DNA of 45,487 nt from positions 1-45,487 of the forward strand of contig JASFTV010000002.1 in NCBI GenBank assembly GCA_050050615.1, written 5' to 3'. Of the stretch, positions 823-15,299 are shown in pieces. Origin of the DNA: Desulfobacteraceae bacterium (GTDB lineage: Bacteria > Desulfobacterota > DSM-4660 > Desulfatiglandales > HGW-15). Made by a program: the position numbers and the translations under genes. Under the pieces are notes generated by a model. That model saw only the letters and a list, made by a program, of their open reading frames with translations, made no database searches and was not told the DNA's origin. Within the stretch, counting starts at the first letter, position 1, and every line of letters starts with the position of its first letter.

Positions 823-1003
823 TGAAAGTCCTTTCCTCCGTCATGCTTTTTCGCATCGTATGGGAATGCTTACTGAACAGTCCACTGCACCAGAAGCCCG
901 CGTTCCCACCATCACAGCCGGCCCGAACCGTTGAGTCCAGCCTTTCAGAGCATGCTGGACGTTCGCCCCCGGCAAATGCTTGTTGGAGACCCATGGGGCA
1001 AGC

Positions 1004-1465
1004 TCATTTCCGATATCCGACAGCATGCAGGTAATACGCTGCCGTGTAATTCCCCACGTGTCTAAACCGTTTTGTCAGCAACTCAATCAAACCCTCTTCC
1101 GTCATATCTCCCAATGACTTTAGGAAACCGGCGAAAGAGCCATACTCCTTCTTTATGCTTTTGAACTCCCGCGCGTTCTGTATGATAGCTTCAACCTTGC
1201 TTTTGTTTCTTAGCACATTCGGTTCTTCAAGTAAAAGGCTGGCTTCTGCTCTGGACAGCCGAGCAATGTTAAATCCGCAGAAGCCTTTGTGATACTTTCG
1301 CCAATTGCGTCTTATGACTCCCCAGTTCAGCCCGGCTTGTAAAATGCACAGGCAAAGAATTTCGAAATAGCCCTGGTCCGATTCAGGTTTTCTGCCTGGC
1401 CTGCACGCGTTTTCCTCCTCCTTGGCATAGACGCAGTCCCATGGCGCTCTATGTTGTTTCTTCAT
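1004..1465 (-). CDS. tag: DNA-3-methyladenine glycosylase I family protein
   Basis: 153 aa. FEILCLCILQAGLNWGVIRRNWRKYHKGF and KSKVEAIIQNAREF resemble E. coli Tag (FEMICLEGQQAGLSWITVLKKRENYRACF, RGKIQAIIGNARAY). Confidence 0.7.
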   Translation of the reverse strand: MKKQHRAPWDCVYAKEEENACRPGRKPESDQGYFEILCLCILQAGLNWGVIRRNWRKYHKGFCGFNIARLSRAEASLLLEEPNVLRNKSKVEAIIQNAREFKSIKKEYGSFAGFLKSLGDMTEEGLIELLTKRFRHVGNYTAAYYLHAVGYRK

Positions 1466-1711
1466 ATATGACCTTACCTGCTGGCCCTATCGACGCGCCC
1501 GCATGTCAAACCAAGCCCGGTTTGACAATGATCCGGGACACACATGCCGGGGCATAGCAACGCCAAGGATCAGAGACAATCCTTTCATAGCTCAGTTCTC
1601 TTTGTGCACAGGAATATGTAATCTCCGACCTTCTCACCATCAAACAAATTATCATAGCGATTTGCCGTGTGGCATTCCTAAACAGTATACTTCTCTCTCT
1701 GAGTTATCCCC

Positions 1712-2536
1712 TCAAATACTTTCGCTGCGGATTGCTCTAAAATCCTTCATGCCCTTTCGGGCTAGAATAGCAAAAATGCCGGGAAAATATTTGTACAACC
1801 TCCACAGCACATGCGCATGGGGGGTAACCACGACGATAGCCCGATTGCGGGAAACCCCTTCAAGGATAATCCGCGCCGCTTTTTGTGAATCCATGATCTT
1901 CACTCGAATTGACTGCAACAACTTCTCTCTGTCTGCGCCGAGCAGCGTCCCCGCATAATGAATGCCGGTTTGGATGAATCCCGGGCACACGACGCTTATC
2001 TTGACACCCAGTGCCTCACCTTCCGCACGCATTGCGGTAGAAAGTCCGACAACAGCATATTTTGTGGCAACGTAGGAACTTACAGACGGGAAGGGAGCAA
2101 GGCCCGCCAGGGAAGAAACGTTCACAATATGCCCGAAACCCTGCCTGACCATCACCGAATAAGCGGCCTTCGTTCCATAAATAACGCCCCAGAGGTTGAC
2201 ATCGACAATGCGACGCCAGTGCTCGAGATTCATGTCACGTACCTCGCCAACGATTGCGATACCTGCGTTGTTGAACATGTAATCGAGGCGGCCGTTTTCC
2301 TCTGCCGTCTCTTCAATGAGCTTTTTTACACTCTCTGCTCGGGTTACATCAAGGTTACTGGCGATTGCAAGTCCGCCAGTTGCAGCGATCTCATCTGCAA
2401 CCTGCCTCGCGCGTTCGGTTTCGATGTCTGTCACATGCACGATTGCGCCTCTTTTACCGAGCTCAAGGCAAATGGCTCGTCCGATTCCTGAAGCACCACC
2501 CGTCACAATAGCTGTTTTATCCCTGAAAATATTCAT
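1712..2536 (-). CDS. SDR family oxidoreductase
   Basis: 274 aa with the TGGASGIGRAI cofactor motif, NNAG, and a YxxxK active site (YVATKYAV). Confidence 0.85.
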   Translation of the reverse strand: MNIFRDKTAIVTGGASGIGRAICLELGKRGAIVHVTDIETERARQVADEIAATGGLAIASNLDVTRAESVKKLIEETAEENGRLDYMFNNAGIAIVGEVRDMNLEHWRRIVDVNLWGVIYGTKAAYSVMVRQGFGHIVNVSSLAGLAPFPSVSSYVATKYAVVGLSTAMRAEGEALGVKISVVCPGFIQTGIHYAGTLLGADREKLLQSIRVKIMDSQKAARIILEGVSRNRAIVVVTPHAHVLWRLYKYFPGIFAILARKGMKDFRAIRSESI

Positions 2537-2744
2537 GATAGCAATTCCCCACTGCTTAGCGTAGTCATCAAAGCCTTAATCGATTGTGATTGAAACCGAT
2601 TTCGAAAGAGGATATCTCATCAGCTGTGTCCGGTTAGAATTTTGCATAACCCCGTTTGATGGCAAATGGGTAGTCCGCGGAAATCTCTTTTCAAAAACGA
2701 AAAAGTCGGTGCCCGGGAGCCGGCATTTGCGTAACAGCCCATGT

Positions 2745-2958
2745 AGTAGAGCGTTTCCTTATTAACATGTCATTTCGACCCCTTCGAGTGCCTCAGAGCC
2801 TGCCCTGCCTATCGCCCTGAGTTCATCGAAGGGAGCCTGCCGAAGGGGTAAACTCCGGGAGAAATCTTGGTAACCCATTGGCATTGTAAGATTTCTCCCC
2901 CCGTTTGCACGGGGGTCGAAATGGCAGTATTGCCACAGTACTTAGGAAACGCTCTACT
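2745..2958 (+). repeat. MITE-like structured repeat, full-length copy 1 (214 bp)
   Basis: 17 bp terminal inverted repeats: AGTAGAGCGTTTCCTTA (2745-2761) and TTAGGAAACGCTCTACT (2942-2958), 16/17 complementary. Nested IRs: TCATTTCGACCCC / GGGGTCGAAATG, and GGGAGAAATCTT (2857-2868) / AAGATTTCTCCC (2888-2899). Related copies at 24814, 29629, 21134 and 43703. Confidence 0.75.
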
Positions 2959-2987
2959 GGGCCTGATACCCTTTCCAGGTACAGCCG

Positions 2988-3632
2988 CTACATCAAAATG
3001 GATTTTGCCAGATCCGCCCCCAGTTTCGAGGCCCTAACCAATGTTTTCTTTTTCTCCTTAACTTTCCCTCTGTCAAAGACGCCTAAAACAGCCAGCTCTC
3101 CTATTATCTCATACCCCAACGCTTTGATTGGAAGGCGCATAGCCTCGAGCGTAAACCCCATATCTTTTTTGTTTACCTGCTCACAAACCGCTATGATGGC
3201 CGCTTTTCGCCCCTGCCCTGCCAAACGGCTCGACCATCCTCTAGGGCGGTTGTCATCAAAAACATAAAAGCAATACAGACGGTCAATAAATGCTTTCATC
3301 CATGCTGTGACATTGTAGTTGTGAGTCGGACATACGAGAACGAGACCTTGAGATTCCATTATTTTAGGATACAATAGACTCATCCCGTCATTCAGGCCCG
3401 AACAGATTTTGTCTTTCCTGCATTTTTCACATCCTATGCAGGGTTGAAATTGATAGTCTCTAAGGTGAATCTTTTCGGTCAAAACGTTGCTCTCTCTGGC
3501 CCTGTCTAAGGCCTGCTTTAGGAGCACATCTGAATTCCCATTTTTCCTTGGGCTACCGCCAACCCCAATGATCTTGGGCTTTGGAAAATGACCGGAAAGA
3601 CTGTTTTGCTTTGTTTCATGCTTAGCATTCAC
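2988..3632 (-). CDS. iron-sulfur flavoprotein / NADPH-dependent FMN reductase family protein
   Basis: 214 aa. Flavodoxin-like N-terminus IIGVGGSPRKNGNSDVLL plus a cysteine cluster CIGCEKCRKDKIC. GTG start with GAGGAGGAAGAG upstream. Confidence 0.65.
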   Translation of the reverse strand: MNAKHETKQNSLSGHFPKPKIIGVGGSPRKNGNSDVLLKQALDRARESNVLTEKIHLRDYQFQPCIGCEKCRKDKICSGLNDGMSLLYPKIMESQGLVLVCPTHNYNVTAWMKAFIDRLYCFYVFDDNRPRGWSSRLAGQGRKAAIIAVCEQVNKKDMGFTLEAMRLPIKALGYEIIGELAVLGVFDRGKVKEKKKTLVRASKLGADLAKSILM

Positions 3633-3680
3633 GGTTTACTCTTCCTCCTCTGTTCCTGGAATAGATACATGCGTACACGA

Positions 3681-3929
3681 TCACCCACTCTTTTTTTTGA
3701 TGATGCAAAAAAGCTTGTGGGTGACTATGACGAGCACGTTTGACAAGACGATGAGCGTAAAACATGCAGCTACAATGACGCCTAGCCAGAAGCTAGCCGC
3801 TAACGCTAAATCATAACCCAATAGCCTGCCAAATATTACGCCCGCAAAGAATAGGACGAGTTCTGCCAGGAATAAGACAAACAGCAGTAATTTGAAATGG
3901 TCCCAGGTCGGATTAGTTTCCCTCCTCAA
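3681..3929 (-). CDS. hypothetical small membrane protein (TTG start, uncertain)
   Basis: 82 aa with three hydrophobic helices and no recognisable family. It overlaps the repeat-derived tail of the ogt ORF. Confidence 0.3.
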   Translation of the reverse strand: MRRETNPTWDHFKLLLFVLFLAELVLFFAGVIFGRLLGYDLALAASFWLGVIVAACFTLIVLSNVLVIVTHKLFCIIKKKSG

Positions 3930-4644
3930 GATACCTGAAATCCTTTCTTGAGTGAATCTCCCCGCCCACAGGGCCGTGCATCTTCACAACCGGAACATGC
4001 CGCGCATTTTCCGGAAAGCGGCCATCGGCGGCCCACCCCCACCCTTCCGGACGGGGCCCTCTGCGGCGGTTTTTGTAGAAAAGGTTCTCTGCTGTTATCC
4101 GCCCTTTATCATCGAAACGAACACCTTCCATCTCGAGCAGGGCTCGCTTCATTTTGAGCCCGCCCTGATATCCGCCGAGGGTTCGATCGGTGCGTATGGC
4201 TCTGTGACATGGGATGATGATTGGAAACGGGTTCCTGGCCAGTGCGGTGCCAACAGCCCGAGCAGCCAATGGCTTGTGCAAATACCTCGCGATTCGCTGG
4301 TATGTGCTCACGTACCCGCGGGGGATGCCGTGCTCGGCACGCAGCACCTTCTGCTGGAAGTCCGAGCATAGATCCAGACGGACAACATCGAGAGCGAAGC
4401 GAATGGCGGTGCCTTGCAGGAATGCCCCGATCTGGCCTGCGACCTCACTGATTTCAACACAAGACAAAGCCGTGGAATCGGCGAACGAGGCTTCGATCCT
4501 CTGCTCAGCCGTGATTTTCGGTCTCGAAAGGAGGACTCTAAGAACCTTAGGCTGTTTTTCATGAACTGACCAAATCACGGCAAACGACCCAAAAGGGCTC
4601 GAGCGAAGGCAGAAGAACGCCTGTGATGGTCCTTTTCTCTTCAT
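3913..4644 (-). CDS. ogt: methylated-DNA--protein-cysteine methyltransferase with a repeat-derived C-terminal extension
   Basis: Active-site IIIPCHRAI and GGYQGGLKMKRALLEMEG match Ogt/Ada C-terminal domains. Homology ends near residue 190 (ENLFYKN). The last ~50 aa are read through the 4033-4080 repeat. Confidence 0.8.
   Translation of the reverse strand: MKRKGPSQAFFCLRSSPFGSFAVIWSVHEKQPKVLRVLLSRPKITAEQRIEASFADSTALSCVEISEVAGQIGAFLQGTAIRFALDVVRLDLCSDFQQKVLRAEHGIPRGYVSTYQRIARYLHKPLAARAVGTALARNPFPIIIPCHRAIRTDRTLGGYQGGLKMKRALLEMEGVRFDDKGRITAENLFYKNRRRGPRPEGWGWAADGRFPENARHVPVVKMHGPVGGEIHSRKDFRYLEEGN
4033..4080. repeat. GC-rich ~47 bp dispersed repeat (REP-B), copy 1
   Basis: CCCACCCCCACCCTTCCGGACGGGGCCCTCTGCGGCGGTTTTTGTAG is near-identical to 6334-6380 and 29588-29634. 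It contains the hairpin CCCCG...CGGGG. Confidence 0.7.
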
Positions 4645-4646
4645 GC

Positions 4647-4782
4647 GTTGAACGTGTCGGGATGAAGTCCAAGCGGCGGGGTTTTCGAAACCCTAAAGCC
4701 TTTATAGTGAAGCCCCTTAGCATTTCTCCCTGTCAGCCCCCCCCACCGGTTAGCGGGGCAACTCCCTGCGCGGACGTTATCT
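4647..4782 (-). other. candidate attC (136 bp) after the 124-aa membrane-protein cassette
   Basis: Minus strand reads AGATAACGTC...GACACGTTCAAC, with an R''/R' pairing AACGTC / GAC(A)CGTT. The R' box abuts the ogt ATG. Internal palindrome GGGTTTCGAAAACCC. Confidence 0.4.
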
Positions 4783-4795
4783 ATGATGGCGAGAA

Positions 4796-5170
4796 CTAAA
4801 CATACATTCCTAGCAGCACCAAAATAGAAGAGGTCGTGAAGATCACCGGGCAAAGCTTAAACGGCAAAAAGCTGATTTTGAATCCTGTCAACAGAGAGAT
4901 CCCTGACAGTGTGTTGAGCATTATGAAGCAAGTCCAATAGATGGCTTTCGAAATCATAGTGGTATGGTCTATGTATGTTACGGAAGCAATGATAGCTCCT
5001 ACGAAGACGAGGGAGATACCTTCGATGATCCATTCCATAGTGATGATTCTTCGATTATCGAGAGAAATGTCTCCGAAATCTCTAACGACAGATCTCGTTG
5101 GGAATAGGTGAGCCACTCCCCAGAAGAGGCAAAGGGCAGCACCCAGGTAAAGCAAGATTTGATTAACCAT
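4796..5170 (-). CDS. hypothetical integral membrane protein (cassette-borne)
   Basis: 124 aa with about 4 predicted TM helices and no recognisable family. Confidence 0.5.
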   Translation of the reverse strand: MVNQILLYLGAALCLFWGVAHLFPTRSVVRDFGDISLDNRRIITMEWIIEGISLVFVGAIIASVTYIDHTTMISKAIYWTCFIMLNTLSGISLLTGFKISFLPFKLCPVIFTTSSILVLLGMYV

Positions 5171-5357
5171 GAAGACCCCCGGAGTGTCGATGGATTTCGC
5201 TTAGCATGATCCACTATCCCTATCACCCGGCACCGCCAAAGAAAAGATCAGCCGCCCCGAGCCTGTCGAACGATCGGCTGCATCGGATGGCAGAGAAAAT
5301 TATGAATAAAAAATGCTTATTCTACGGTTCAAGGGGAGACGGCATGTAGGTTACATG

Positions 5358-5468
5358 CCCTAACCAGGCAAAAATGTCCCTTTTCGAGGGTGGACCTCGA
5401 TTTTATTGCTGCTGGCCAATTGATTGAAAATAGGCGAAATGCCGAAGAATACGCCCTATCTGTTTCGG
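5358..5468 (-). other. weak candidate attC after the histone-fold cassette
   Basis: Minus strand CCGAAAC...GTTAGGG with 5/7 end complementarity. Inner arms pair poorly. An ATAGGGCG/CGCCTAT hairpin plus a T-run could equally be a terminator. Confidence 0.25.
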
Positions 5469-5478
5469 ATATGATGGC

Positions 5479-5676
5479 CTACATAAAGTCTCTATCCATT
5501 ACGGTCTTGCGGCCATCAGCTTTTGCTTTCTCGATTGCTTGATCGCACAAATTGCGAATGGTGTCCGATAACGCCGGTGCAACATTGCCCGCCGTATTCA
5601 TTCCGGACACCGAACGGATATACTTCTTGAGTTTGGATACAACCACCAGTACCTCTTTTTCGCCGTGAGAGCTCAT
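5479..5676 (-). CDS. bacterial histone-fold protein (DUF1931 / HBb-like singlet histone)
   Basis: 65 aa: VLVVVSKLKKYIRSVSGMNTAGNVAPALSDTIRNLCDQAIEKAKADGRKTVMDRDF. This shows the helix-loop-helix-loop-helix pattern ending in the histone-fold hallmark A..GRKTV...D. Perfect AAGGAGG RBS upstream. Confidence 0.7.
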   Translation of the reverse strand: MSSHGEKEVLVVVSKLKKYIRSVSGMNTAGNVAPALSDTIRNLCDQAIEKAKADGRKTVMDRDFM

Positions 5677-5710
5677 CGTATTCCTCCTTTTCTGTGTTGT
5701 TAACGAAAGC

Positions 5711-5783
5711 AGCTAACGATCGAACGCAGCTGTGGGCAACCAGCGAAGTTGTTTGCGCTTCGGACCGCAGCGAGTGGTTAAAC
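5711..5783 (-). other. attC, CCACTCGCTGC family (73 bp)
   Basis: Minus strand GTTTAACCACTCGCTGCGG...CACAGCTGCGTTCGATCGTTAGCT. R'' GTTTAAC fits RYYYAAC. Central stem CGAAG/CTTCG. Confidence 0.55.
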
Positions 5784-5843
5784 ATCCCTGTGTTTTCTTA
5801 ACCACCTCCGCCGATCCTTGGCGCCCATTTCCTTGTTCTTTGC

Positions 5844-6050
5844 TCATAGCTCAAGCTCTTTCATCGTATCAGCCGTCGTGAGAATAGGACCTGATGTATC
5901 CTGCAACTTATGCAGTGCCACATCCAAGTCAGGTGATTCGGACAGATATGGTTCCAAAGCCCTTTGAACACGGTGAGACTTGGGGCTCTCTGTTTCTTTA
6001 GCGATATCAAAGAGTTTTGAGGCTATCTCGTCAGGGATCCTTATGCAAAT
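5844..6050 (-). pseudogene. ribbon-helix-helix antitoxin-like ORF lacking a canonical start codon
   Basis: My translation: (I)CIRIPDEIASKLFDIAKETESPKSHRVQRALEPYLSES..., an RHH beta-strand plus two helices. The frame is open from 6089 but has no ATG/GTG/TTG before codon 32. An ATGA-overlapping 20-codon stub follows and runs into the attC at 5783. Confidence 0.4.
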
Positions 6051-6145
6051 AGCCTTGCTCCTACGCGGCCTCCAATTTATTTTCTTGTATTACCTTGTAG
6101 TCGTTGTGAGTAGGAAATGCAAGGTGTTTTTCGAAGGCTACAAAA

Positions 6146-6252
6146 CGCCAACGTTCAGCCGCACACCAAAGCCCGCTGTAGCCCCGGCGAAAGCGGGCCT
6201 GTCTCGCCATAGCTTCAGCGATGGCGGATCCCGCTGCAGAGTGTTGTTGGTA
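6146..6252 (-). other. attC, same family (107 bp, branched)
   Basis: Minus strand TACCAACAACACTCTGCAGCGG...GCGGCTGAACGTTGGCG. Two internal perfect hairpins: GCCCGCT/AGCGGGC and CGCCAT/ATGGCG. Confidence 0.45.
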
Positions 6253-6333
6253 CGTTTCATCTTAGATGATAAACTTCACCTATCCCTAATGGCGCAACCT
6301 TGATATCTGATTCTGCAAAAACCACGCGCCATT

Positions 6334-6380
6334 CACCCCCGCCCTTCCGGACGGGGCTCTCTGCCGCGGTTTTGGCAGAT
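6334..6380. repeat. REP-B copy 2 (inside an ORF-less cassette)
   Basis: CACCCCCGCCCTTCCGGACGGGGCTCTCTGCCGCGGTTTTGGCAG matches 4033-4080 and 29588-29634. Confidence 0.7.
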
Positions 6381-6496
6381 TTCGAACCTCTCTGGTAAAA
6401 ATGGGCGTTTCTATGAAGGAAGCGCATGGCTATAGGCCAATGGCGTATAGCCATCAAGATATTTTCTAGGAGATTGTAAACTGAAGGAATTCATCT

Positions 6497-6613
6497 GGCT
6501 AGCGGCCGAGCTCAGCGGCGGGGCACGTGCGTGGCTAATAATCGCGCTTTCGCGATCAGTACTGAAAAACGAAAAAACTGTTTGCGCCTTCCGACTGCAG
6601 CGAGTGGTTAGAC
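6497..6613 (-). other. attC, same family (81-117 bp, R' end ambiguous)
   Basis: Minus strand GTCTAACCACTCGCTGCAG starts 5 nt after the TfoX stop codon. R' is either ATTAGCC (6533-6539) or GCTAGCC (6497-6503). Confidence 0.5.
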
Positions 6614-6618
6614 CGGAT

Positions 6619-6948
6619 TCACTTCGGTGGTAGAGAACTTGCGAATTCCCTGGCCTGATTCAGCCAACTCGCTAAGTCATGATCTGCCCGGAATCCATCC
6701 TGCTCCACCATGACCCATCCTTTCATTGGTTTCCCGGTGATGTCAAATGGCCTCACATGTGGCAATGCTAGAGCCTTATTGCCGTTTTCCTCGCCAAGTC
6801 GAAGGATGAGGAAGTCTTTGTAGACACCGCAGAACATATTTCCATTCAAAAGGTGGCACACGCCCCCGAACATACTCTTGTGATCGGTATTTTTCCAGCT
6901 CGATATCATTTTCTTTATTCTAGTTTCAATTTGTTTATTGTACGGCAT
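6619..6948 (-). CDS. TfoX/Sxy N-terminal domain protein (cassette-borne)
   Basis: 109 aa. MFGGVCHLLNGNMFCGVYKDFLILRLGEE is the TfoX_N pattern. GGGAGG RBS. Confidence 0.7.
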   Translation of the reverse strand: MPYNKQIETRIKKMISSWKNTDHKSMFGGVCHLLNGNMFCGVYKDFLILRLGEENGNKALALPHVRPFDITGKPMKGWVMVEQDGFRADHDLASWLNQAREFASSLPPK

Positions 6949-6976
6949 GCTCTAACCTCCCGAGTTAAATTCAGAT

Positions 6977-7066
6977 CTTCAACAGTTTCGAGCTGATCGG
7001 CCCCGCAGAGTTACCCCACTTGATTTTCGCTCCTCACGCGGGGTCCACTCCAGCGAGTGGTTATGC
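6977..7066 (-). other. attC, same family (90 bp)
   Basis: Minus strand GCATAACCACTCGCTGG...CAGCTCGAAACTGTTGAAG. The TAA stop of the hydrolase gene lies inside R'' (7061-7063). Confidence 0.55.
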
Positions 7067-7981
7067 CGATCCATTCCCCGAAGAATATTTCGTCCAATGT
7101 TTGAGCAGACAAGTCGCCACTTGCTCTGGCTGTTCCTCTTGAACAAAATGGCCAGAATCAGCAATTAGATTAACGGATACCGTTGCCCCTCTCTTTTCTA
7201 GCTGTTTTTCCAAATCCCTGCAAATCCATGGGGGATTAAAGCGATCATTCTCCCCCCAGATGAGACAGATGTCATTCCGATATGCATGGTCTGAACGAAT
7301 GGGGAGTTTGATTTCCCTGGAGGAACTCACCCCTCTTAGAACTCGGGTTTTCTGACTGATGAGTGACCGTCCCATATTGCGATAAAGCTTGGTCCAATAG
7401 CGCGTTGTCTCCTGATCCCGAAACATCTGAAGATATAAATCTCTGGCCTCTGGGGCGAGACTCATTTTATTCACAAACGCCCCCAACATACCAAACTTGA
7501 AAAATCTGTCAGGGATCAGGCGGAAGACAACTGTGGGCACAAATGGAATATTGAAGAAAATCATGTGCCACATCCCAAGCACATCGGTCTTCCAGTAATT
7601 CGTATTCATTATTGCCAGAGATATCAATGTCTCAGGCCTAAACCGGGATACATGCAGCGCGATTGCACCTCCCCAATCATGACCTACCAGATGGTATCGC
7701 TGCAGCTGGAGTTTCGAGATGATCGTGTCATGATCGTAATAGAACCGATTTAGGGAGGCCTCTCCAGCCCTTGAACTCTCACCAAATCCACGCAAATCAT
7801 ACACAATTAGCCTGTAGGGCTGGATTTCATCAGAATCAAATGCGGCAATCACGGGGTGCCAGCATATGTGTGTTTCAGGGAAACCATGAACAAAGACGAT
7901 TGGCGTCCCTGACGTGCAGTTATCCCAAACAACCAGCGTTGCGCCGTCATCAGTTGTTATTGCTTCTCTGGTGAATTCCAT
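7061..7981 (-). CDS. alpha/beta hydrolase, epoxide-hydrolase-like
   Basis: 306 aa with the HGFPETHICW and GHDWGG motifs. Confidence 0.8.
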   Translation of the reverse strand: MEFTREAITTDDGATLVVWDNCTSGTPIVFVHGFPETHICWHPVIAAFDSDEIQPYRLIVYDLRGFGESSRAGEASLNRFYYDHDTIISKLQLQRYHLVGHDWGGAIALHVSRFRPETLISLAIMNTNYWKTDVLGMWHMIFFNIPFVPTVVFRLIPDRFFKFGMLGAFVNKMSLAPEARDLYLQMFRDQETTRYWTKLYRNMGRSLISQKTRVLRGVSSSREIKLPIRSDHAYRNDICLIWGENDRFNPPWICRDLEKQLEKRGATVSVNLIADSGHFVQEEQPEQVATCLLKHWTKYSSGNGSA

Positions 7982-8002
7982 GGATTGGCTTCAAAAAATG
8001 CT

Positions 8003-8052
8003 CTAAATAAAGAAAGTTAAGAGTGCCCAAATGTTTGTAAAACTGAGCACCC
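8003..8052 (-). terminator. putative rho-independent terminator downstream of the PD40-like gene
   Basis: Minus strand GGGTGCTCA-N14-TGGGCACTC (7/9 pairs) followed by TTAACTTTCTTTATTT. Confidence 0.45.
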
Positions 8053-8087
8053 TTTGACCCAAACCTTCAGAGTTTCTAAAACTTACC

Positions 8088-9752
8088 TTATTCCAATTCC
8101 ATAACCCTCCACCGCAGCTTTCTTCCGACTCTTACCCCAAATGCTAATTTTGTACCATCGTTATTAAGAGTGATTATGGGGTCATTGGTTACATAGGTAG
8201 TTTGAGATGGACCCAATTTAACAGAAAGTCCGCTAATCAGCTTTAAACGGTCCGTTAGCCTGACAGCCAGCCTTCCGCCTAAACAAACTGCGATACCACC
8301 TACAAAATCATATGGTGGGCTGATTTGATCATCCACGACCACATAGGCTTTGTCGTCTTTATATCCAACATAGGCAACTTTCTCACCATCGGGACTGAAA
8401 ACCAGGGTAGGATTTTTTCGCTTAACCGTGAGTTTAAGTCGGCCTAAGTTGATATTCGATAGAGCAATCTCGTCGAATGCCTCGCCCTTGTGGCCGTCAA
8501 CAACGACAAACCTCTTGTCCCCTTGACGGGCAATATAGGCAACATGTTCGCCATTGGAGCTAAAAACCGGGGCCCAAACCCCATCAAACAATTCACCTTT
8601 CTTATCGCCTACGACAATGAAAACCTTATCATTTTGCTCGGCACAATAAGCCACGGTTTTCCCATTTGGACTGAAAACAACGGACCATATATCATCAAAT
8701 GCTTCGCCCTCTTTATTTCCTACCACAACAAATTCCTTATCATCCTTTTCAGCGCCATAGGCTAGAGTTTTCCCGTCCGGACTAAACACCAGCGGCCAAA
8801 CATCATCGAATGCTTCGCCTTCCTTGCCGTCGATAACAACAAACTGGTTATCCCCTCGACGGGCAATATAGGCAACATGTTCGCCATCGGGGCTAAAAAC
8901 CGGGGCCCATATATAGTCATACTTTTTCCCCTGATGATTACCCACTACGACAGACATTTTTTTGTTTTTGGTGATACGATAGGCGACCTTTTTGCCATCG
9001 GGGCTAAACACTGGTGACCATGACCTTACATTGTCGAATGGCTTCCCCTTTTTATCTCCCACCACTACGAAGCATTTCTCGCCTTCTTTACCAAAATATG
9101 CTACCGTACTCCCAATGGGACTGAATACCGGAGGCCATACATAATCAAACATCTCGCCTTTCTCATTGTCTACCACAACACACCATTTTTTGCCTTGTCT
9201 TGCCGTATAAGTGAAATGACTACCATCAGGACTGAATAAAAAGGAATAAACTTCATCAAATTGTTCACCAGTGTTATCTCCGACGATGACAAATTCCTTT
9301 TCCCCCTGTTTGGCGGAATAAGCCACTGTTTTTCCAGTCGGGCTAAAGACTGGAAAAGATACCTTATCAAATTTCTTGCCCTTTTTATCACCCCATACGA
9401 CAAATTCTTTCTCCCCTTCCTTTCCGACATAAGCTACAGTTTTGCCATCTGGACTGAATACGTGAAAATCAAGTTGAACCCCTGAAATATTTTCCGGTAA
9501 TGTGGCTAATAAACTTTCTTGGAAGCTGACCTCTGTCTCCTGGTTTTCTGGATAGGCTTTTCGCCCGCAAGATATTTGCAATACTAAAATTATTCCCAAA
9601 AGCACAAAGGACAATTTCCCAATTGATCTAGCAAAATTTGGCTTTTTTCCATTTTCAGCTTTAAGGAAATTGATAGAGTTACAATTAGCCTTTTCCTCGT
9701 CTTTAACTTTTCGAGATTCTTTCTGCGAAAGATAAGATTGATCGTATTGCAT
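8088..9752 (-). CDS. PD40/beta-propeller-like repeat protein with N-terminal membrane anchor
   Basis: 554 aa. Contains ten tandem ~37-aa units of the form VFSPDGKTVAY-x6-KEFVVVGDKKGExFDxVW. Hydrophobic segment LSFVLLGIILVLQISC near the N-terminus. Confidence 0.75.
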   Translation of the reverse strand: MQYDQSYLSQKESRKVKDEEKANCNSINFLKAENGKKPNFARSIGKLSFVLLGIILVLQISCGRKAYPENQETEVSFQESLLATLPENISGVQLDFHVFSPDGKTVAYVGKEGEKEFVVWGDKKGKKFDKVSFPVFSPTGKTVAYSAKQGEKEFVIVGDNTGEQFDEVYSFLFSPDGSHFTYTARQGKKWCVVVDNEKGEMFDYVWPPVFSPIGSTVAYFGKEGEKCFVVVGDKKGKPFDNVRSWSPVFSPDGKKVAYRITKNKKMSVVVGNHQGKKYDYIWAPVFSPDGEHVAYIARRGDNQFVVIDGKEGEAFDDVWPLVFSPDGKTLAYGAEKDDKEFVVVGNKEGEAFDDIWSVVFSPNGKTVAYCAEQNDKVFIVVGDKKGELFDGVWAPVFSSNGEHVAYIARQGDKRFVVVDGHKGEAFDEIALSNINLGRLKLTVKRKNPTLVFSPDGEKVAYVGYKDDKAYVVVDDQISPPYDFVGGIAVCLGGRLAVRLTDRLKLISGLSVKLGPSQTTYVTNDPIITLNNDGTKLAFGVRVGRKLRWRVMELE

Positions 9753-9833
9753 GACTCTATCCTCCTATGCATGTTGGTTTGGCCGGCGTTTGGGCCGCGT
9801 CGGACGAAGCTAATCTATTGATATTCAAATCTA

Positions 9834-9869
9834 TTCGAATAAAACCTTATGAGTAAAGGCTTTTTCGAA
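9834..9869 (-). terminator. imperfect palindrome / weak terminator after the SnoaL-like gene
   Basis: TTCGAATAAAACCTTATGAGTAAAGGCTTTTTCGAA. On the minus strand the stem is followed by TTTTATT. It lacks AAC...GTT ends, so it is not called attC. Confidence 0.3.
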
Positions 9870-10406
9870 CTATCGAGAAGACCTTCTAACAAACCATGCA
9901 ACAAATCGCTGTACTGAAACTCCGATTCGACCTTTTAAAGTACCCGAGACGGGCTTAGGGGGGAGAAAACCGAGCTGCTGAGCCAAATGCATTCCATCAA
10001 AACGAGTAATACAACGGCATAGTTTTCCCTCACGAAATTCCATAAGGTCAAACCCGTTGATTTCAAACCTTCTCCCTGTAGGGGCAAATCCTGGCGGATC
10101 GAGAGGGCCAAGCATCGTACCTGAAATTTTCCAGGGCTGGATAATCTTTGTCGGGTCTGTGGATATGAATGGTTCACCTGTGGGAATATATTGAAAGTCA
10201 GGAATCGCTCGCCATAGGGAAAGGGCAAATTTTTTCACGGCATCATGACCACATGCAGGTTCTTCCATTGCAGGATCATCCCAGAATATATCTTCTGTGA
10301 GGTATGATAGAAGTTTTTCGAGGTTTCTTGCATTCCAGGCTTCCGAAATCATGCGGACATGATTGCTATATTTTTCAATTGCCTTAGGATAAGACATATC
10401 AGTCAT
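9870..10406 (-). CDS. SnoaL-like / ester cyclase family protein
   Basis: 178 aa. NTF2-like pattern: ISEAWNARNLEKLLSYLTEDIFWDDP ... GRRFEINGFDLMEFREGKL. Confidence 0.65.
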   Translation of the reverse strand: MTDMSYPKAIEKYSNHVRMISEAWNARNLEKLLSYLTEDIFWDDPAMEEPACGHDAVKKFALSLWRAIPDFQYIPTGEPFISTDPTKIIQPWKISGTMLGPLDPPGFAPTGRRFEINGFDLMEFREGKLCRCITRFDGMHLAQQLGFLPPKPVSGTLKGRIGVSVQRFVAWFVRRSSR

Positions 10407-10445
10407 GGGATGCCTTTAAGATATATTGCCTTGAAGATTTACCTC

Positions 10446-10507
10446 ACATAACGGTCGGCATAAGGTGCGGCGGTTTTCTGCCGTCGCCCTTAATGCCGTT
10501 GTTATGC
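10446..10507 (-). other. attC (62 bp, canonical)
   Basis: Minus strand GCATAACAACGGCATTAAGGGCGACGGCAGAAAACCGCCGCACCTTATGCCGACCGTTATGT. R'' GCATAAC and R' GTTATGT with paired inner arms. The TAA stop of the upstream ORF lies within R''. Confidence 0.8.
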
Positions 10508-11233
10508 GGCATCATAGAAGGAGAATCTTATAACGTTGAACTCACAACCATCAATGCAAGTACCACAGAGAATGCATTCAGTATTTTCCATTTTGTTGGT
10601 CTTTACCATCCTTTCAACAGGAAGGCTCATTGGGCAGTTTTGGGTACATGTATGACAATGGTTGCATTTCTCGGAATCCGCTTTTAGGTGTAGTGAAGCC
10701 CACTTTAAACTATTCCTTATTTTTCTCCCTAATATCATAAATGGAGCCATCCAACATAAATGATGGCAGAATGACCTATTCCCAAAAACAAAAGAGGGTA
10801 TTACTATTAGGAAGATAAGAACGCAAAGATAAGCTATGAGAGCGCTTACATCTCCTATTGAAAAGCCGTATCTAGTCTGGTAAAGAAAATCTATTTTCTC
10901 ATAACCACCACGTCTGATTGCTAATAGCACGATAGCACTGATCCACGGGACCCAAATTATCCATTTAATATAATCGCCCTTTGTTACTTTTGTATTTCTT
11001 GCCAAAAAGATTGCCTCCTGACACCCTGCACCAGGACAAACCCATCCACAGTATGCCCTGCCAAGAACAAAAGCACTAATAAACATAAGCAAGAACATAA
11101 TAAAGCTACCATTTATAATACCATTTATGGTGGATTGAATGATGACAACAGGCGACAGATAATAGAAAATTGCAGGAAATAGAAAAAATGAGGATAGAAT
11201 CATTCCCTTTCTCAATTTTTGTCTGGTTTTCAT
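10502..11233 (-). CDS. 4Fe-4S-binding polytopic membrane protein (NapH/YccM-like)
   Basis: CGWVCP motif, two CxxCxxCxxxCP clusters (CNHCHTCTQNCP, CILCGTCIDGC) and several TM helices. I start it at MKTRQ (11233) because the upstream 26 codons overlap the attC. Confidence 0.7.
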   Translation of the reverse strand: MKTRQKLRKGMILSSFFLFPAIFYYLSPVVIIQSTINGIINGSFIMFLLMFISAFVLGRAYCGWVCPGAGCQEAIFLARNTKVTKGDYIKWIIWVPWISAIVLLAIRRGGYEKIDFLYQTRYGFSIGDVSALIAYLCVLIFLIVIPSFVFGNRSFCHHLCWMAPFMILGRKIRNSLKWASLHLKADSEKCNHCHTCTQNCPMSLPVERMVKTNKMENTECILCGTCIDGCEFNVIRFSFYDAA

Positions 11234-11263
11234 TTTCTTCCCCAGTAAAATGATAAGATCTAA

Positions 11264-11338
11264 GCATAACGTATGAGCTAAGTGGCGTTTGCAGAAGCGC
11301 AGCGGATGCAAACGCCCAACTTGAGCGAATTGTTAGAA
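11264..11338 (-). other. attC (75 bp, canonical)
   Basis: Plus strand GCATAAC-gtatgagctaagt-GGCGTTTGCA-N13-TGCAAACGCC-caacttgagcgaatt-GTTAGAA. It has a 10 bp perfect central stem and paired imperfect arms. Confidence 0.75.
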
Positions 11339-11570
11339 ACCCCAAACCATCCAATTTACACAATCGATCAAAACATCATTCAGATTGGCAATGATTCCGA
11401 TTCAATATCTTTCTTAAGCAGCACAGATTGTATACAACCGATAAACTTGGAATTCTCTAAAATAGGCGTTTTCAGGCCCTATATCGCCCTTTCTAACCCC
11501 AGAATGGCCTTCATAAGGAAAAACTGCTCTTATCGATTAATTTGAATAATGCTCTTTTTGCCCCAAAAAA

Positions 11571-11636
11571 GCTCAATATACAGCCTAAATAAGGGCGCTT
11601 TTCTGCTTTTTCTTCAATAGTTTTATATAGTTAGCG
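11571..11636 (-). other. candidate attC (66 bp) after the MBL-fold gene
   Basis: Minus strand CGCTAACTATATA...TATATTGAGC. The ends pair, R' is degenerate (ATTGAGC), and the inner arms are weak. Confidence 0.3.
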
Positions 11637-11662
11637 TGGCCTGACCCCATCTCCTCCATCTC

Positions 11663-12397
11663 CTAAGGTGGTCCCCCTTTTAGGTCCTCCAGGCAGTAGG
11701 TTTCGCCGATATCCAATGGTATCAGCTTGATATCCGATCTTGTTTCTATTTCGTCTGCGAGCTTTAGAGGATCGACCTCGAATCTGTGCATAGGAATCAA
11801 AACCTTAGGGTTAATCGCGATGGCTGCCTCCGCTGCCTCCCCAATATCCATCGTAAATGTCCCGCCGATAGGAAGCAATGCTACATCTACGCCCCCGAGT
11901 TCTCGCATCTCTGGTATGAAATCGGTGTCCCCCGCGTGATAGATCGTCTTGCCGTCTATCACAATCAAATAGCCAATTCCTTCTCCTTTGCGATGCTGCT
12001 TTCTGGTAGAACTCCCTTGTTCGGTGTTGTAGGCTTGCACCGCCTCTATGACCATGTTATCAAGACTTAACCTCTCTCCTGGCTTAATCGTTTTGATGTC
12101 CTTGCTCAATTCTTTAGTGCAGCGCTTGGGAGCTATAACCAACGTGTCTGGGCGCCTGAGCCTCTCTACTGTAACGCGTTTACAATGGTCTTTATGGTGG
12201 TGTGTCACCAGAATCAAATCAGCCTTCTCCAGCTCACCAGGCAGTCCATCAATTGGGTCAGGCCACGAGGAAAACTCGATTCTCTTTGGGTAATCTTTGA
12301 AGTAGGTCTTTAAGTAGGCCGGATCAATAAATATGAGCTTGTTCTGAGCGCTTATTTGAATCCAAGAAGGTGGGAACCATTTGATGGATATTGGCAT
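11663..12397 (-). CDS. MBL-fold metallo-hydrolase
   Basis: HHHKDH (HxHxDH) motif. Start set at MPISIK (12397), which is preceded by AGGAGGAAGAG. Confidence 0.8.
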   Translation of the reverse strand: MPISIKWFPPSWIQISAQNKLIFIDPAYLKTYFKDYPKRIEFSSWPDPIDGLPGELEKADLILVTHHHKDHCKRVTVERLRRPDTLVIAPKRCTKELSKDIKTIKPGERLSLDNMVIEAVQAYNTEQGSSTRKQHRKGEGIGYLIVIDGKTIYHAGDTDFIPEMRELGGVDVALLPIGGTFTMDIGEAAEAAIAINPKVLIPMHRFEVDPLKLADEIETRSDIKLIPLDIGETYCLEDLKGGPP

Positions 12398-12436
12398 TCT
12401 CTTCCTCCTCATATTCGATCCCTTGGACAAGCGGCC

Positions 12437-12555
12437 GCCCAACGTCAGAGATCAGCGGCGGCTACGGGACGTCCGCTGGGGTGATTTGGTTGGGCGGCGA
12501 ATTCCTTTTTTCTCATCTTTTTTCGCCAACCCCAAGTTTAACTTCGTCGTTATTG
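12437..12555 (-). other. attC (119 bp)
   Basis: Minus strand CAATAACGACG...CTGACGTTGGGC. R' GTTGGGC fits GTTRRRY. The TAA stop of the CocE/NonD gene lies inside R''. Internal stem CAGCGG/CCGCTG. Confidence 0.5.
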
Positions 12556-14499
12556 GGCAACTGGGAGTTGGATGAATGATGGGTGATTCATGCTTCTCAG
12601 CAATTGGAGCCTTGGCGCCGGATCGATGACTGGCGTATCGAAGTTGTCGGCATCCGCGCAAACAAGCGAAATGCGTATCCTGCTTCCCTTATCAAACCGG
12701 TACGAGGTTGGCAGCAGGCTGAAGGCCAACTCAACCGGTTCCCCGGCCGGGATTGGCGCCAAGTCACTCTGATAATGAGAGTGATAGGGTAGCCCCAGAT
12801 TATCGAAAGGCGCCTGGCATAGCTTGCGATGAGAAGACCGGAGCGTCCCTTCGGTGACGTAGGTGGACTTGCCATCGCGATCCACTTCTTCCAGATACAC
12901 GAATACATCCAGGTCCGGAGCATCGGTCGTGAGCCAAATGTGCGCCACTGGATGCCCCGTGACCTCCACGTCAGTCTCCAGGGGAGAAGTGGTATAGGTC
13001 AATGCCTTTTCGTCATTGGCGTGCATATCGGGATAATCATGTACCTCGTCGACAGCAACCCAACGCGACTTCTTGCCGCTCGTTGTTGTATAATCCACAG
13101 TGTAAACATCAAAGGCATCGGGCGCCGGTGGAGATTCTGTGCTCAGGAAGCCGTCATTGACCGAGGCGACGCTCCTTGTCTTTCCTTTGCTGAAATAGAA
13201 TGGCTTCATTTTCTGCTTTGCCAGCGGCCATTGGTTGGAATTCTGCCAGGCTTCTTTTTCAGGTGCCCCTATAACGTAATAGTGAATCGGCGGTTCATCC
13301 ATAATGCCATTGTCAATGCCCTTTAGCCAGTAGTCGAACCAGCGCTGTGCTTCAGCCTTGTAGTCCAGGTCGAATTGACTTGCGTCCATGCCGCTGTGAT
13401 CCAGCGGGCGAACAGTCAACCGCTTGGGCACGGTGAGATTGTGGTACCACAAAAACACGTCACCCAAGAAGATGTCATACCAGCCGGTCGTCATATAGAC
13501 GGGTATGCCTGACCGGTTGACGCGTTCTATGAACGGGTAAAGCGATATTAACTTCCAAAGACGCATTCCGTTCGGCAAGATACTGTCGCGGAACGGGTAT
13601 TTCGCGGCCTGTGTGGCCATTGTTTCCCCGTCAGCCGAACCGCTGCGTCCCTGACGGGCCTGGGCCAGCAATGCGCCATCCTTATCGCTGTCGACGGGTG
13701 TAGCAAGTTTCTCGAGATATGGGACCACCCTAGCGAAAAAAGAGTTGAAGGCTTTGTTGTATACGCCACCCCGATACTCCAAGGCTTCGTACAAATCCAA
13801 CTGGCTTGATGCGGGAAAGATCGCTTTCAGGTGCGGGTTGCCCGTGCTGGCAGCGGTAAATTGACACCAAGCTTGCTGGGATTCCCCGTACATGCCGATG
13901 TTTCCGTTGCACCAGGCCTGGGATGCGATCCAATCCAGGATTTCGTTCTCCTCCCTGGCTATTGCCTCCATGCTTTGCTTAGCAATGCCGAAGGAAGCGC
14001 CTGTTCCGGGCCGCTCTACGACGATGACGGCATAGCCATGCCTGACCATGTTTCGCAACCACTTGGTTCTCATGAGGGGATCCATCAAGTGCCCCTTGTC
14101 GGAAAGCCAATAGCGGATGCGGAGCGCGGCCTTTTCATACCACTTCAAGTCTATAAAAAAGGTAATAAGGTTTTTTCCGTCTTTGTCGAAGATGGTAAAG
14201 GTGCGCAGGTAGGGTGTGTATTTGAAGAGAACGGGTAAAGGCTCGCTGGCCGGAACACCTTTTTTGGTCGGGAGAATGAGGTCGTATGCCAACCTCGTTC
14301 CATCTGACAGCGTCAGATAATCGGAAATGCGCTTGTTGCCATCATAAATTGCTTCGGAATAACCTTGATATTTCCCAAATTCTGACATTTTCCCTTTCCC
14401 GACTATTTTCTTAAAAGTGAAGAAGAGCGCGATCACCAAGATGACTGCAATAATGGGATACTTCATTTTCGCCCTGATCAGTTTGCCCATTTCTTTCAT
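12550..14499 (-). CDS. CocE/NonD family hydrolase (S15 X-Pro dipeptidyl-peptidase-like) with N-terminal TM anchor
   Basis: 649 aa. Nucleophile region IGMYGESQQAW, and a PepX_C-like tail DLDVFVYLEEVDRDGKSTYVTEGTLRSSHR. Confidence 0.75.
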   Translation of the reverse strand: MKEMGKLIRAKMKYPIIAVILVIALFFTFKKIVGKGKMSEFGKYQGYSEAIYDGNKRISDYLTLSDGTRLAYDLILPTKKGVPASEPLPVLFKYTPYLRTFTIFDKDGKNLITFFIDLKWYEKAALRIRYWLSDKGHLMDPLMRTKWLRNMVRHGYAVIVVERPGTGASFGIAKQSMEAIAREENEILDWIASQAWCNGNIGMYGESQQAWCQFTAASTGNPHLKAIFPASSQLDLYEALEYRGGVYNKAFNSFFARVVPYLEKLATPVDSDKDGALLAQARQGRSGSADGETMATQAAKYPFRDSILPNGMRLWKLISLYPFIERVNRSGIPVYMTTGWYDIFLGDVFLWYHNLTVPKRLTVRPLDHSGMDASQFDLDYKAEAQRWFDYWLKGIDNGIMDEPPIHYYVIGAPEKEAWQNSNQWPLAKQKMKPFYFSKGKTRSVASVNDGFLSTESPPAPDAFDVYTVDYTTTSGKKSRWVAVDEVHDYPDMHANDEKALTYTTSPLETDVEVTGHPVAHIWLTTDAPDLDVFVYLEEVDRDGKSTYVTEGTLRSSHRKLCQAPFDNLGLPYHSHYQSDLAPIPAGEPVELAFSLLPTSYRFDKGSRIRISLVCADADNFDTPVIDPAPRLQLLRSMNHPSFIQLPVAQ

Positions 14500-14544
14500 C
14501 CTTTTTAGCTCTTAGTAATGCCGCCTGTTCGTGCCGCGCAGCAG

Positions 14545-14616
14545 CGCGAACGCTGCCCTTAACCATCAGGGGGGAGCGGCAGCGAAACCCAGTCTGCGTT
14601 CAGGGGTTTGTTCGAT
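14545..14616 (-). other. candidate attC (72 bp, branched) of the vapBC cassette
   Basis: Minus strand ATCGAAC...GTTCGCG (5/7 complementary ends) enclosing two hairpins: AAACCC/GGGTTT and CGCTGCC/GGCAGCG. Confidence 0.4.
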
Positions 14617-14634
14617 GTAGCGCTCCTATAGTAG

Positions 14635-15042
14635 CTACGGGCTGATCAATCTGACTGACGGAAAATAGGTACGATATCTGGATACGTCTCGTGTGATTAA
14701 CTCCATATCAAGTATGGCCGCTTGTGCTCCAATATAGAAATCAGGTGAGGGGGACCCCTTTATTCCTCTACCCCTCCTGTGCTTTAGAAAAGCTTTTCCA
14801 GCCAAAAACAGAGCCTCTTTGGGAATTTCCAGCATCTGGAGACCGCTTTTGTTCAGAGCTGACTCCAAATCCTCTATCTTTTCAAAACCAATTGAGACTT
14901 CAGTATACACAATTGAGTTAATGTAGAGATCGGTATCAACGCTATATTCTGCCAATGCTGATTCCGACCAATCTGCCCAATTGGGATCATCAAGGAAAAT
15001 GTCGAGAATGACATTAGAGTCGACGAGAAGGCCCTTCATCAC
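14635..15042 (-). CDS. vapC: type II toxin VapC (PIN domain)
   Basis: 135 aa. LLVDSNVILD N-terminus typical of PIN toxins. 4-nt ATGA overlap with the upstream antitoxin. Confidence 0.8.
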   Translation of the reverse strand: MMKGLLVDSNVILDIFLDDPNWADWSESALAEYSVDTDLYINSIVYTEVSIGFEKIEDLESALNKSGLQMLEIPKEALFLAGKAFLKHRRGRGIKGSPSPDFYIGAQAAILDMELITRDVSRYRTYFPSVRLISP

Positions 15043-15266
15043 TCTGCCCTCGTTAAAGCCATAATCTCATCTGTTGTCATTTTGACGGTTGCAATGCCAC
15101 GTAATTTTTTGAATTTACGCGTTGCGATTTTACCCCCCTTTTTTTTCACTAAATATACACGGCCCCCCTTCTCAACAAAATCAATTTCTGTGGACGGCGT
15201 TATACCCAATTTTTCGCGAATGTGCTGAGGGATTGTGACTTGGCCTTTTATAGTGACTCTCATCAT
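15039..15266 (-). CDS. vapB: AbrB/SpoVT-type antitoxin VapB
   Basis: 75 aa. VTIKGQVTIPQHIREKLGI is the SpoVT/AbrB swapped-hairpin motif. GGAGG RBS. Confidence 0.8.
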   Translation of the reverse strand: MMRVTIKGQVTIPQHIREKLGITPSTEIDFVEKGGRVYLVKKKGGKIATRKFKKLRGIATVKMTTDEIMALTRAE

Positions 15267-15283
15267 TCAACCTCCAGTACTTG

Positions 15284-15299
15284 GTATTACTGGTAATAC
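15284..15299. promoter_or_regulatory. palindromic candidate VapB operator
   Basis: GTATTAC-TG-GTAATAC, a perfect 7+7 palindrome 18 nt upstream of the vapB ATG, flanked by further TATTACT repeats. Confidence 0.45.

Follow-up and report, generated by a model that had tools for sequence, protein, structure and literature searches.

A predicted bacterial histone of the HBb class encoded within the cassette array of a chromosomal integron

The DNA described here (hereafter the window) covers 45,487 nt of contig JASFTV010000002.1, from an uncultured, sulfate-reducer-like Desulfobacteraceae bacterium (GenBank assembly GCA_050050615.1). It contains a complete chromosomal integron, located between lpxK and ddl, with an integron-integrase gene (intI) and at least seven well-folding attC sites. 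One gene of its cassette array encodes a 65-aa protein which, by homology, is a bacterial singlet histone of the HBb/Bd0055 'bacterial dimer' class, with a truncated alpha3 helix. We consider it likely that this gene is an old integron cassette that is now a fixed resident of the lpxK–ddl locus, and that its product is, by homology, a nucleoid-associated histone. As a protein it is an unremarkable representative of an established family, with no new mechanism implied. Its genomic setting is the interesting part.

An original prediction, made from the sequence alone, had described a 65-aa open reading frame (ORF) at 5479–5676 as a singlet histone-fold protein of the Bd0055/HBb class, with a perfect AAGGAGG ribosome-binding site and a GRKTV...D motif. 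The translation is exactly as quoted there, and the strand, which had not been given, is minus. The AAGGAGG is present on this strand, 6 nt before the ATG, and the motif is found as GRKTVMDRD. This is the single such histone gene in the whole window. In a phmmer search against the PDB, residues 7–64 of the protein match Bd0055/HBb (8cmp, 8fvx) at E 6e-13, with 31 of 58 aligned residues identical, and a family profile of 35 relatives matches 8cmp at E 4.4e-18. Judged by these matches, the homology to bacterial histones is far beyond chance, and the predicted class is upheld. A further phmmer match (E 2.4e-7) is to 9qt0, a 65-aa chain deposited as 'DUF1931 domain-containing protein'. With the NCBIfam archaeal histone model, whose cut-off is 50 bits, the score is 18.8, and no other Pfam or NCBIfam domains were found in the protein.

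Within the bacterial histones, the dimer group is delimited by sequence similarity to HBb (from sequence clustering), an RKT...D motif, lysines in alpha1, and the lack of R48/N52, while DUF1931 proteins are a separate category without the usual DNA-binding residues (PMC11390915, PMC10627809). The window protein carries S14-K15, K17-K18, and R56-K57-T58...D63, which are invariant or nearly so among the 35 relatives. At the positions of the face-to-face tetramer residues R48/N52 it has K50 and D54 (AIEKAKADGRKTV versus ...ALKRTESNKRTTV in 9qt0, with the numbering mapped by the present authors). Since the S-K, lysine, and RKT...D motifs are present and K/D replaces R/N, the protein is classed here as a predicted bacterial dimer histone and not as a DUF1931 protein. 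The DUF1931 label attached to it by the original prediction is therefore dropped: the Pfam model (PF09123) gives no match to the window protein at E<=1, and only weak matches in 3 of the 35 relatives (best E 0.011).

That the gene lies within an integron cassette array is borne out by the integrase and by attC sites that fold well and lie both closer to and farther from intI than the gene does (Table 1). Throughout, attC folding was assessed as the z-score of the bottom-strand DNA fold against shuffled sequence. Because the attC at 2847–2909 lies beyond the histone gene as seen from intI, the gene is inside the array, about 9.9 kb from intI and in cassette orientation. Besides lpxK, lipopolysaccharide genes lie to the right of intI, and tblastn detects Ddl genes in related loci also. 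The named relatives of the LpxK protein are from Deltaproteobacteria/Thermodesulfobacteriota, and the other gene content is consistent with this. The same array is found in two other assemblies and is identical in all three, as is the histone sequence.

The history of the gene can be approached through related histone loci, referred to here by L numbers. A protein search returned 753 matches for the family, and histone stretches were confirmed in 337 of 600 candidates in GTDB genomes and in 258 of 600 candidates in metagenome contigs. The nearest members of the family (80–92% identity) belong to Brocadiales and other Planctomycetota, Desulfobacterales, Nitrospinota, and Nitrospirota. At the lpxK–ddl locus, the histone gene is present in four related lineages: two have an intact intI, one has only a remnant of it, and one has none. 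The order of neighbours varies among them. LpxK in these relatives is 61–65% identical to that of the window. In L089–L094, where an integron also lies between lpxK and ddl, IntI is 76% and the histone 87% identical to the window's, and the order is intI, six other cassettes, AF_1845, histone, TfoX_N, GNAT, Ogt, ddl. L182 has histone–TfoX_N–GNAT–Ogt–ddl. Beside lpxK (9809–9896) it also has a 90-nt stretch corresponding to the first 54 nt of the L090 intI plus 36 nt upstream, and the coding part is frameshifted by our own reading. As read from this remnant, the L182 locus is an integron that has degraded but still retains the histone block. L175 carries AF_1845–histone–GNAT–ddl and no intI. Apart from the window's own species (L088), the L089 lineage is the only one among 174 histone loci in which tblastn detects IntI. 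Given the L182 remnant, and given that L175 and L182 nest with L089 and not with the window, loss of the integrase would be likelier than repeated gain. These lineages therefore probably diverged after an integron at lpxK had already come to carry the histone gene in its array.

This history has to be weighed against the alternative that the gene was never a cassette, but an ordinary gene of an ancestral lpxK–ddl island (histone, TfoX_N, GNAT, Ogt), around which the integron grew later. Such an island would account for the block without integrase in L182 and L175, for L010, where ddl comes directly after the histone gene, and for the lack of an attC belonging to the gene itself. It would also fit close homologues that are plainly core genes, arranged as RuvX–HAD–YggT–SIS–histone in Brocadiales and as DUF456–histone–YggS–Maf, beside histidine-biosynthesis genes and dnaG, in other Desulfobacterales. 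In addition, the gene has a sigma70-like promoter of its own in the L182, L175, and L010 lineages. We nevertheless regard this alternative as unlikely. The 5' remnant of intI beside lpxK in L182 points to an integrase that was lost, not one that was absent from the start. In the window, the histone gene comes immediately after an attC-like junction motif and is separated from ddl by attC-bearing cassettes (2847–2909 and 922–967). In the more distantly related L184, lpxK is flanked by neither ddl nor a histone island.

The promoter-like site in question, TGGACA-17-TATGAT (10 of 12 matches), lies upstream of the histone gene in the L089, L175, L182, and L010 lineages. A conserved element of the form CTGGACAAACC-N-TATGAT precedes the histone gene in L089 (9832–9860), L176 (about 7780–7810), L010, L102, L175, and L182, and is accompanied by a structured 5' untranslated region of about 140–200 nt in several lineages. 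The window copy has neither the promoter-like element nor the structured 5' region. No promoter of its own is recognisable, as the surrounding 1.6 kb holds 2 matches versus 1.8 expected.

Several results weigh against the reading of the gene as a histone that entered this locus as a cassette. With regard to the fold, CBFD_NFYB_HMF (PF00808), the other Pfam model to which the original prediction had looked, does match, but at 18.6 bits (E 0.0023, residues 33–63 only) the match falls below the gathering cut-off of 21.4. The same model matches all 35 sampled relatives, with a best E of 8.6e-5. The AlphaFold2 monomer, modelled from a 35-sequence alignment, has a predicted local distance difference test score (pLDDT) of 67.5 and helices at residues 3–24 and 29–53 only, and Foldseek finds no match to it in the PDB. 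A poor monomer model is to be expected from an obligate dimer with an alpha3 helix of 3–4 residues. The fold assignment therefore draws on sequence homology only. With regard to the locus, a promoter belonging to the gene and its persistence without integrase in sister lineages also fit an ordinary chromosomal gene.

The remaining contrary points concern the cassette boundaries, where the gene had been predicted to lie between an attC and a weak attC candidate. A gene cleanly bounded by two such sites is not what is found. The upstream site (5711–5783) retains a repeated junction motif and R''/R'-like heptamers, but it folds no better than shuffled sequence (z +0.47, or 0.03 when taken as 5698–5783) and its R' is ambiguous, with GTTCGAT (5719–5725) and GTTAACA (5698–5704) as possible as the heptamer listed in Table 1. 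The attC-like site ends 38–48 nt 5' of the histone ATG. Its 5' half is an exact 13-mer, TAACCACTCGCTG, which occurs three times in the 45 kb (5780, 6610, 7063), each time on the minus strand and at a cassette junction; the sites at 6615 and 5783 are homologous over about 40 nt. The downstream candidate, a weak attC at 5358–5468, was rejected, as only 3 of the 7 positions of its R''/R' boxes (CCGAAAC/GTTAGGG by our own reading) pair with each other and the z-score of the fold is -1.26. Pattern and fold scans and an inverted-repeat search found no attC 3' of the histone gene in 5171–5478, up to the next gene, and the same scans found none after that gene, which encodes a 124-aa membrane protein. 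The inverted repeats in 5150–5500 are short and mutually incompatible. Our own attC detector, which combines R''/R' pairing with the bottom-strand fold, is crude: it recovers obvious sites but has a background of 0.1–0.4 hits per kb, and it shows no enrichment in the flanks of the 174 histone loci (0.32 hits per kb). A MAFFT alignment of the variable-length attC sites was too poor to define L-box pairs for a covariance model. As no attC was found 3' of the gene and the upstream site folds no better than shuffled sequence, the status of the gene as a cassette rests on its position and context, and not on both boundaries.

The DNA homology of the window copy to other histone loci starts at 5717–5721, about 45 nt 5' of the ATG, and the conserved leader begins with a GTTAG heptamer that is the likeliest R' of the preceding attC in the window. 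GTTAG was rejected as a universal cassette boundary, because in L011 the real attC is more than 120 nt further upstream, and loci in core contexts have this leader too; the coincidence is intriguing, not diagnostic. Upstream of the histone gene, 830 nt (5785–6615) hold no convincing ORF, although gene callers place an 86-aa ORF on the opposite strand. This segment has two to three attC-like structures (6520–6615, 6316–6413, 6140–6260) and probably consists of ORF-less or decayed cassettes.

The original prediction had further regarded the gene as horizontally shuffled cargo, potentially acting as a xenogeneic silencer. Its neighbours do differ in order and other arrays do carry the gene, but its occurrence at the same lpxK–ddl locus in four lineages, two of them without integrase, looks more like long-term fixation than active shuffling. 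The question whether homologues are core or cassette-borne has a mixed answer: they are core genes in Brocadiales and other Desulfobacterales, and linked to attC sites in L011 and L098. In L011, a canonical attC (ATCTAAC AAATT ... TCAGTC GTTGAGG) lies 173 nt upstream of the histone gene, and in L098 one with a z-score of -4.8 lies about 1 kb upstream. L176 has a one-directional run of unrelated genes, in which no attC was detected.

Some of these observations could be taken to mean that the cassette is still actively mobile, whether through an unorthodox functional attC or as a two-gene unit with the 124-aa membrane protein, and that IntI shuffles it as an accessory nucleoid modifier or xenogeneic silencer. 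The intI gene is full-length, the gene stands beside canonical attC sites in the L011 and L098 arrays, and the window copy lacks the promoter found in other contexts, as is typical of cassettes. The L098 copy (1123–1323) has a TAA at codon 7, and is either a pseudogene or restarts at a GTG to give a 55-aa protein; a nonsense-mutated copy is what might be expected of dispensable cargo. The order of histone and TfoX_N is also swapped between the window and L089, but their TfoX_N proteins are only 42% identical, so the apparent swap may reflect independent cassettes. Active mobility would further have to be reconciled with the failure to find an attC 3' of the histone or after the next gene, and with an array that is identical in its three assemblies. 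Silencing has no support in the present data, and such a role is pure conjecture. Taken together, we judge an actively mobile cassette to be quite improbable.

Not every rearrangement near the gene resembles integrase activity. A 521-nt TfoX_N segment (L090 6998–7518) immediately follows the histone stop codon in some loci and is missing there in others, as seen by comparison with L175 (10298–10304), L010, and L102. Since it is flanked by a direct repeat, TCACATCG, and not by GTT, this indel is unlike a canonical IntI event. In L011, a 126-nt palindrome after the histone gene was considered as the attC of that gene. The assignment is doubtful, since the palindrome is part of a longer, 199-nt element (659–857; core 693–818, z -5.1) that might be a large attC but is more like a miniature inverted-repeat transposable element (MITE). 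L100 has the same 199-nt element behind a different 3' flank.

In the reading that we favour, the histone gene would have entered the locus as an integron cassette in an ancestor of the clade and would then have become fixed, its own attC being no longer recognisable. Purifying selection has since maintained it at lpxK–ddl in four diverged lineages; two of these have lost the integrase, and in both the gene carries a promoter of its own. By homology to HBb, two copies of the protein would form a histone-fold homodimer. The dimer would be expected to bind DNA non-specifically through the Ser-Lys/Lys residues of alpha1 and the RKT loop of L2, and hence to behave as a nucleoid-associated protein.

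Selection on the gene is evident. The ratio of non-synonymous to synonymous substitution (dN/dS) is 0.05–0.18 against homologues and 0.08 between the window and L089 (58 codons), and the histone is under purifying selection. This bears on the idea that the window copy is a remnant, in decay or unexpressed, at too great a distance from the Pc promoter of the cassettes and with no promoter of its own. The distance of 9.9 kb from intI and the chance-level promoter matches would suit such a remnant, and L098 demonstrates that copies of this kind can decay. However, the intact ORF with its low dN/dS, the perfect Shine-Dalgarno sequence, and the identity of the sequence in three assemblies make it highly improbable.

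The same gene is well conserved at the DNA level between phyla. The ORF is 75–87% identical to copies in other phyla, and a leader of about 45 nt, (G)TTAGRTACTTTRATTAACAAYATAGAAAAGGAGGG, can be aligned across Brocadiales, Scalindua, and Nitrospinota together with about 100 nt of 3' flank. Against Brocadiales, Scalindua, and Nitrospinota, pS (the proportion of synonymous sites that differ) is 0.43–0.46, compared with a saturated 0.74 for intI between the two integron lineages, although estimates of synonymous divergence from only 58 codons, in a gene whose codons may be biased by high expression, also tell against reading much into this difference. These comparisons are suggestive of a recent spread of the leader, ORF, and 3' flank as a unit between phyla. 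Within the subfamily, such a unit appears to have moved fairly recently, with integron arrays as one vehicle. A more far-reaching proposal is that the subfamily travels between Thermodesulfobacteriota, Brocadiales/Scalindua, and Nitrospinota as a cassette made up of leader, ORF, and 3' element, and that the clade acquired its chromatin protein in this way and then domesticated it. We put this forward only tentatively, as a doubtful possibility. The small hairpin in the 3' flank was considered as a terminator or a conserved RNA and rejected, its fold z-scores being unremarkable.

A histone fold could also serve a purpose other than chromatin, for instance in a small transcription factor or in a partner of a neighbouring cassette product (Ogt, TAG, TfoX_N). 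Not all prokaryotic histone-fold proteins organise the genome (PMC11390915), and DNA-repair or DNA-binding cassettes neighbour the histone gene in several lineages. Yet the identity to HBb is high and includes all the DNA-contact motifs, the neighbours vary between contexts, and PADLOC returns zero defence-system matches, so we hold a non-chromatin role to be very unlikely. Defence-system and phage readings of the region were likewise rejected, PHROGs giving a single weak match (E 0.003). Rfam has no match anywhere in the window.

The neighbouring cassettes in question encode an Ogt-like alkyltransferase with an intact PCHR motif (3913–4644), a TAG 3-methyladenine glycosylase (1004–1465), and TfoX_N (6619–6948), all on the minus strand; histone, TfoX_N, and Ogt also co-occur in the L089 and L182 arrays. 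In L012, a Desulfobacterales metagenome-assembled genome, a gene at 1404–1745 encodes a protein with a SWIB/MDM2 domain, another eukaryote-like domain associated with chromatin; this gene is found two genes upstream of that for the histone.

Table 1. Coordinates of the integron, its attC sites, and the predicted histone gene in the window.
Feature	Position	Strand	Details
Histone gene, predicted 65-aa singlet of the HBb/Bd0055 'bacterial dimer' class	5479–5676	minus	ATG 5674–5676, TAG 5479–5481
Shine-Dalgarno AAGGAGG	5683–5689	minus	6 nt 5' of ATG; read from sequence
44-nt leader GTTAGCTGCTTTCGTTAACAACACAGAAAAGGAGGAATACG	5677–5720	minus	conserved with histone loci of several phyla
3' flank with small hairpin, no attC	5350–5478	minus	conserved with L098 and L011 histone loci, partly with Scalindua and Brocadiales
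attC-like site of preceding ORF-less cassette	5714–5783	minus	R'' GTTTAAC 5777–5783; R' likeliest GTTAGCT 5714–5720
intI, full-length integron integrase	15552–16520	plus	TIGR02249 476.7 bits (cut-off 265), model 1–313 of 315; Pfam Phage_int_SAM_4 and Phage_integrase
lpxK, chromosomal flank on intI side	16812–17909	plus	Pfam LpxK 1e-87
ddl (partial), chromosomal flank at far end of array	1–822	minus	translation; runs off window
Cassette array	920–15551	minus	all cargo genes on minus strand, functions unrelated
Array cargo from intI, first part			VapB-like antitoxin and PIN toxin, S15 peptidase, metallo-beta-lactamase-fold protein, Fer4 protein, SnoaL
Array cargo, middle part			PD40 propeller, alpha/beta hydrolase, TfoX_N, ORF-less units, histone
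Array cargo, last part			124-aa membrane protein, Ogt-like alkyltransferase, 82-aa protein, FMN reductase, SDR, TAG glycosylase
attC	14545–14616		z -2.5
Canonical attC GCCCAAC...GTTGGGC	12437–12495	minus	z -3.3
Canonical attC TTCTAAC AATTC ... GTTATGC	11264–11338	minus	z -3.2
Canonical attC GCATAAC...GTTATGT	10446–10507	minus	z -6.3; R boxes pair 7/7
attC after alpha/beta-hydrolase cassette, with shared 13-mer	6977–7068	minus	z -2.0
attC-like site	6316–6413		z -2.4
Canonical short attC, beyond histone from intI	2847–2909	minus	z -3.5; called by strict detector
Last attC GGCGAAC GTCCAGC ... GCTGGAC TCAACG GTTCGGG	922–967	minus	before ddl; within 860–1003 segment, z -2.46

Other cassettes of the array have features of their own. 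The first cassette after attI (14635–15264, minus strand) encodes the pair of VapB (AbrB)-like antitoxin and PIN-domain toxin, and the PD40/WD40-like beta-propeller cassette (8088–9752, minus strand) encodes 554 aa with 111-nt (37-aa) tandem repeats. The Fer4 membrane protein ORF, called from a TTG start (10502–11311), is overlapped by the textbook attC at 11264–11338, and the true start of the protein is probably an internal Met (MKTRQKL...). Around the attC at 2847–2909 lies a 214-nt imperfect palindrome (2745–2958) with 43-nt arms, which could represent either a MITE or an attC of unusual length. A GC-rich hairpin segment of 46 nt occurs twice, with 89% identity, at 4034–4079 and 6334–6379 (within 3984–4100 and 6316–6413, respectively), and the 243-aa Ogt ORF seems to read through the attC-like element at 3984–4100, while its relatives are only 104–208 aa long.

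It was only in 2023 that bacterial histones came to be recognised as major chromatin proteins, and their patchy distribution and possible horizontal transfer are open questions (PMC10627809, PMC11390915). Here, a clear HBb-type histone gene lies inside integron arrays, in a phylum that these two papers do not name for the class, and in full-text literature searches no paper turned up that connects histone-fold genes with integron cassettes. Its position in an array suggests one way in which histones could have spread patchily among bacteria. Unsaturated synonymous sites across phyla, conserved non-coding flanks, and a series of intact, truncated, and absent integrases make the acquisition of a bacterial histone directly testable. 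If the subfamily does travel as a cassette, integrons would be a delivery route for architectural chromatin proteins, which would help to explain the patchy distribution of histones.

Nucleoid-associated proteins are already familiar on mobile elements in the form of the plasmid-borne, H-NS-like 'stealth' proteins. The window resembles these in placing an architectural DNA-binding protein on a platform for gene mobility. It differs in having a histone fold instead of H-NS and an integron instead of a plasmid, and a role in silencing is conjectural.

Among the histones, HBb/Bd0055 of Bdellovibrio bacteriovorus (8cmp, 8fvx) is the nearest known counterpart. Both are singlets of about 65 aa with no extra domain, identical at 31 of 58 positions; they share the S-K motif of alpha1, the lysines, and GRKTVMxRD in L2/alpha3, and both lack the residues of the face-to-face tetramer. 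Unlike Bd0055, the window protein has a host in Thermodesulfobacteriota, a phylum unnamed for the class in PMC11390915, is encoded in an integron array, has an N-terminus 6 residues longer, and is known from sequence alone. The face-to-face histones, represented by 9qt0 (E 2.4e-7), belong to the same alpha3-truncated superfamily, but have R48/N52 where the window protein has K50/D54. Pfam DUF1931 (PF09123) differs in that it does not match the window protein and lacks the usual DNA-binding residues (PMC11390915).

As an integron gene, the histone is most readily compared with the cassettes of sedentary chromosomal integrons. It shares with them an array beside intI, co-oriented genes, unrelated cargo that includes a toxin–antitoxin pair, attC sites between cassettes, and promoterless ORFs that each have a ribosome-binding site near the junction. 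It departs from them in lacking its own attC, in the heterogeneity of the attC sites along its array, and in having stayed at the locus across lineages, even where the integrase has been lost.

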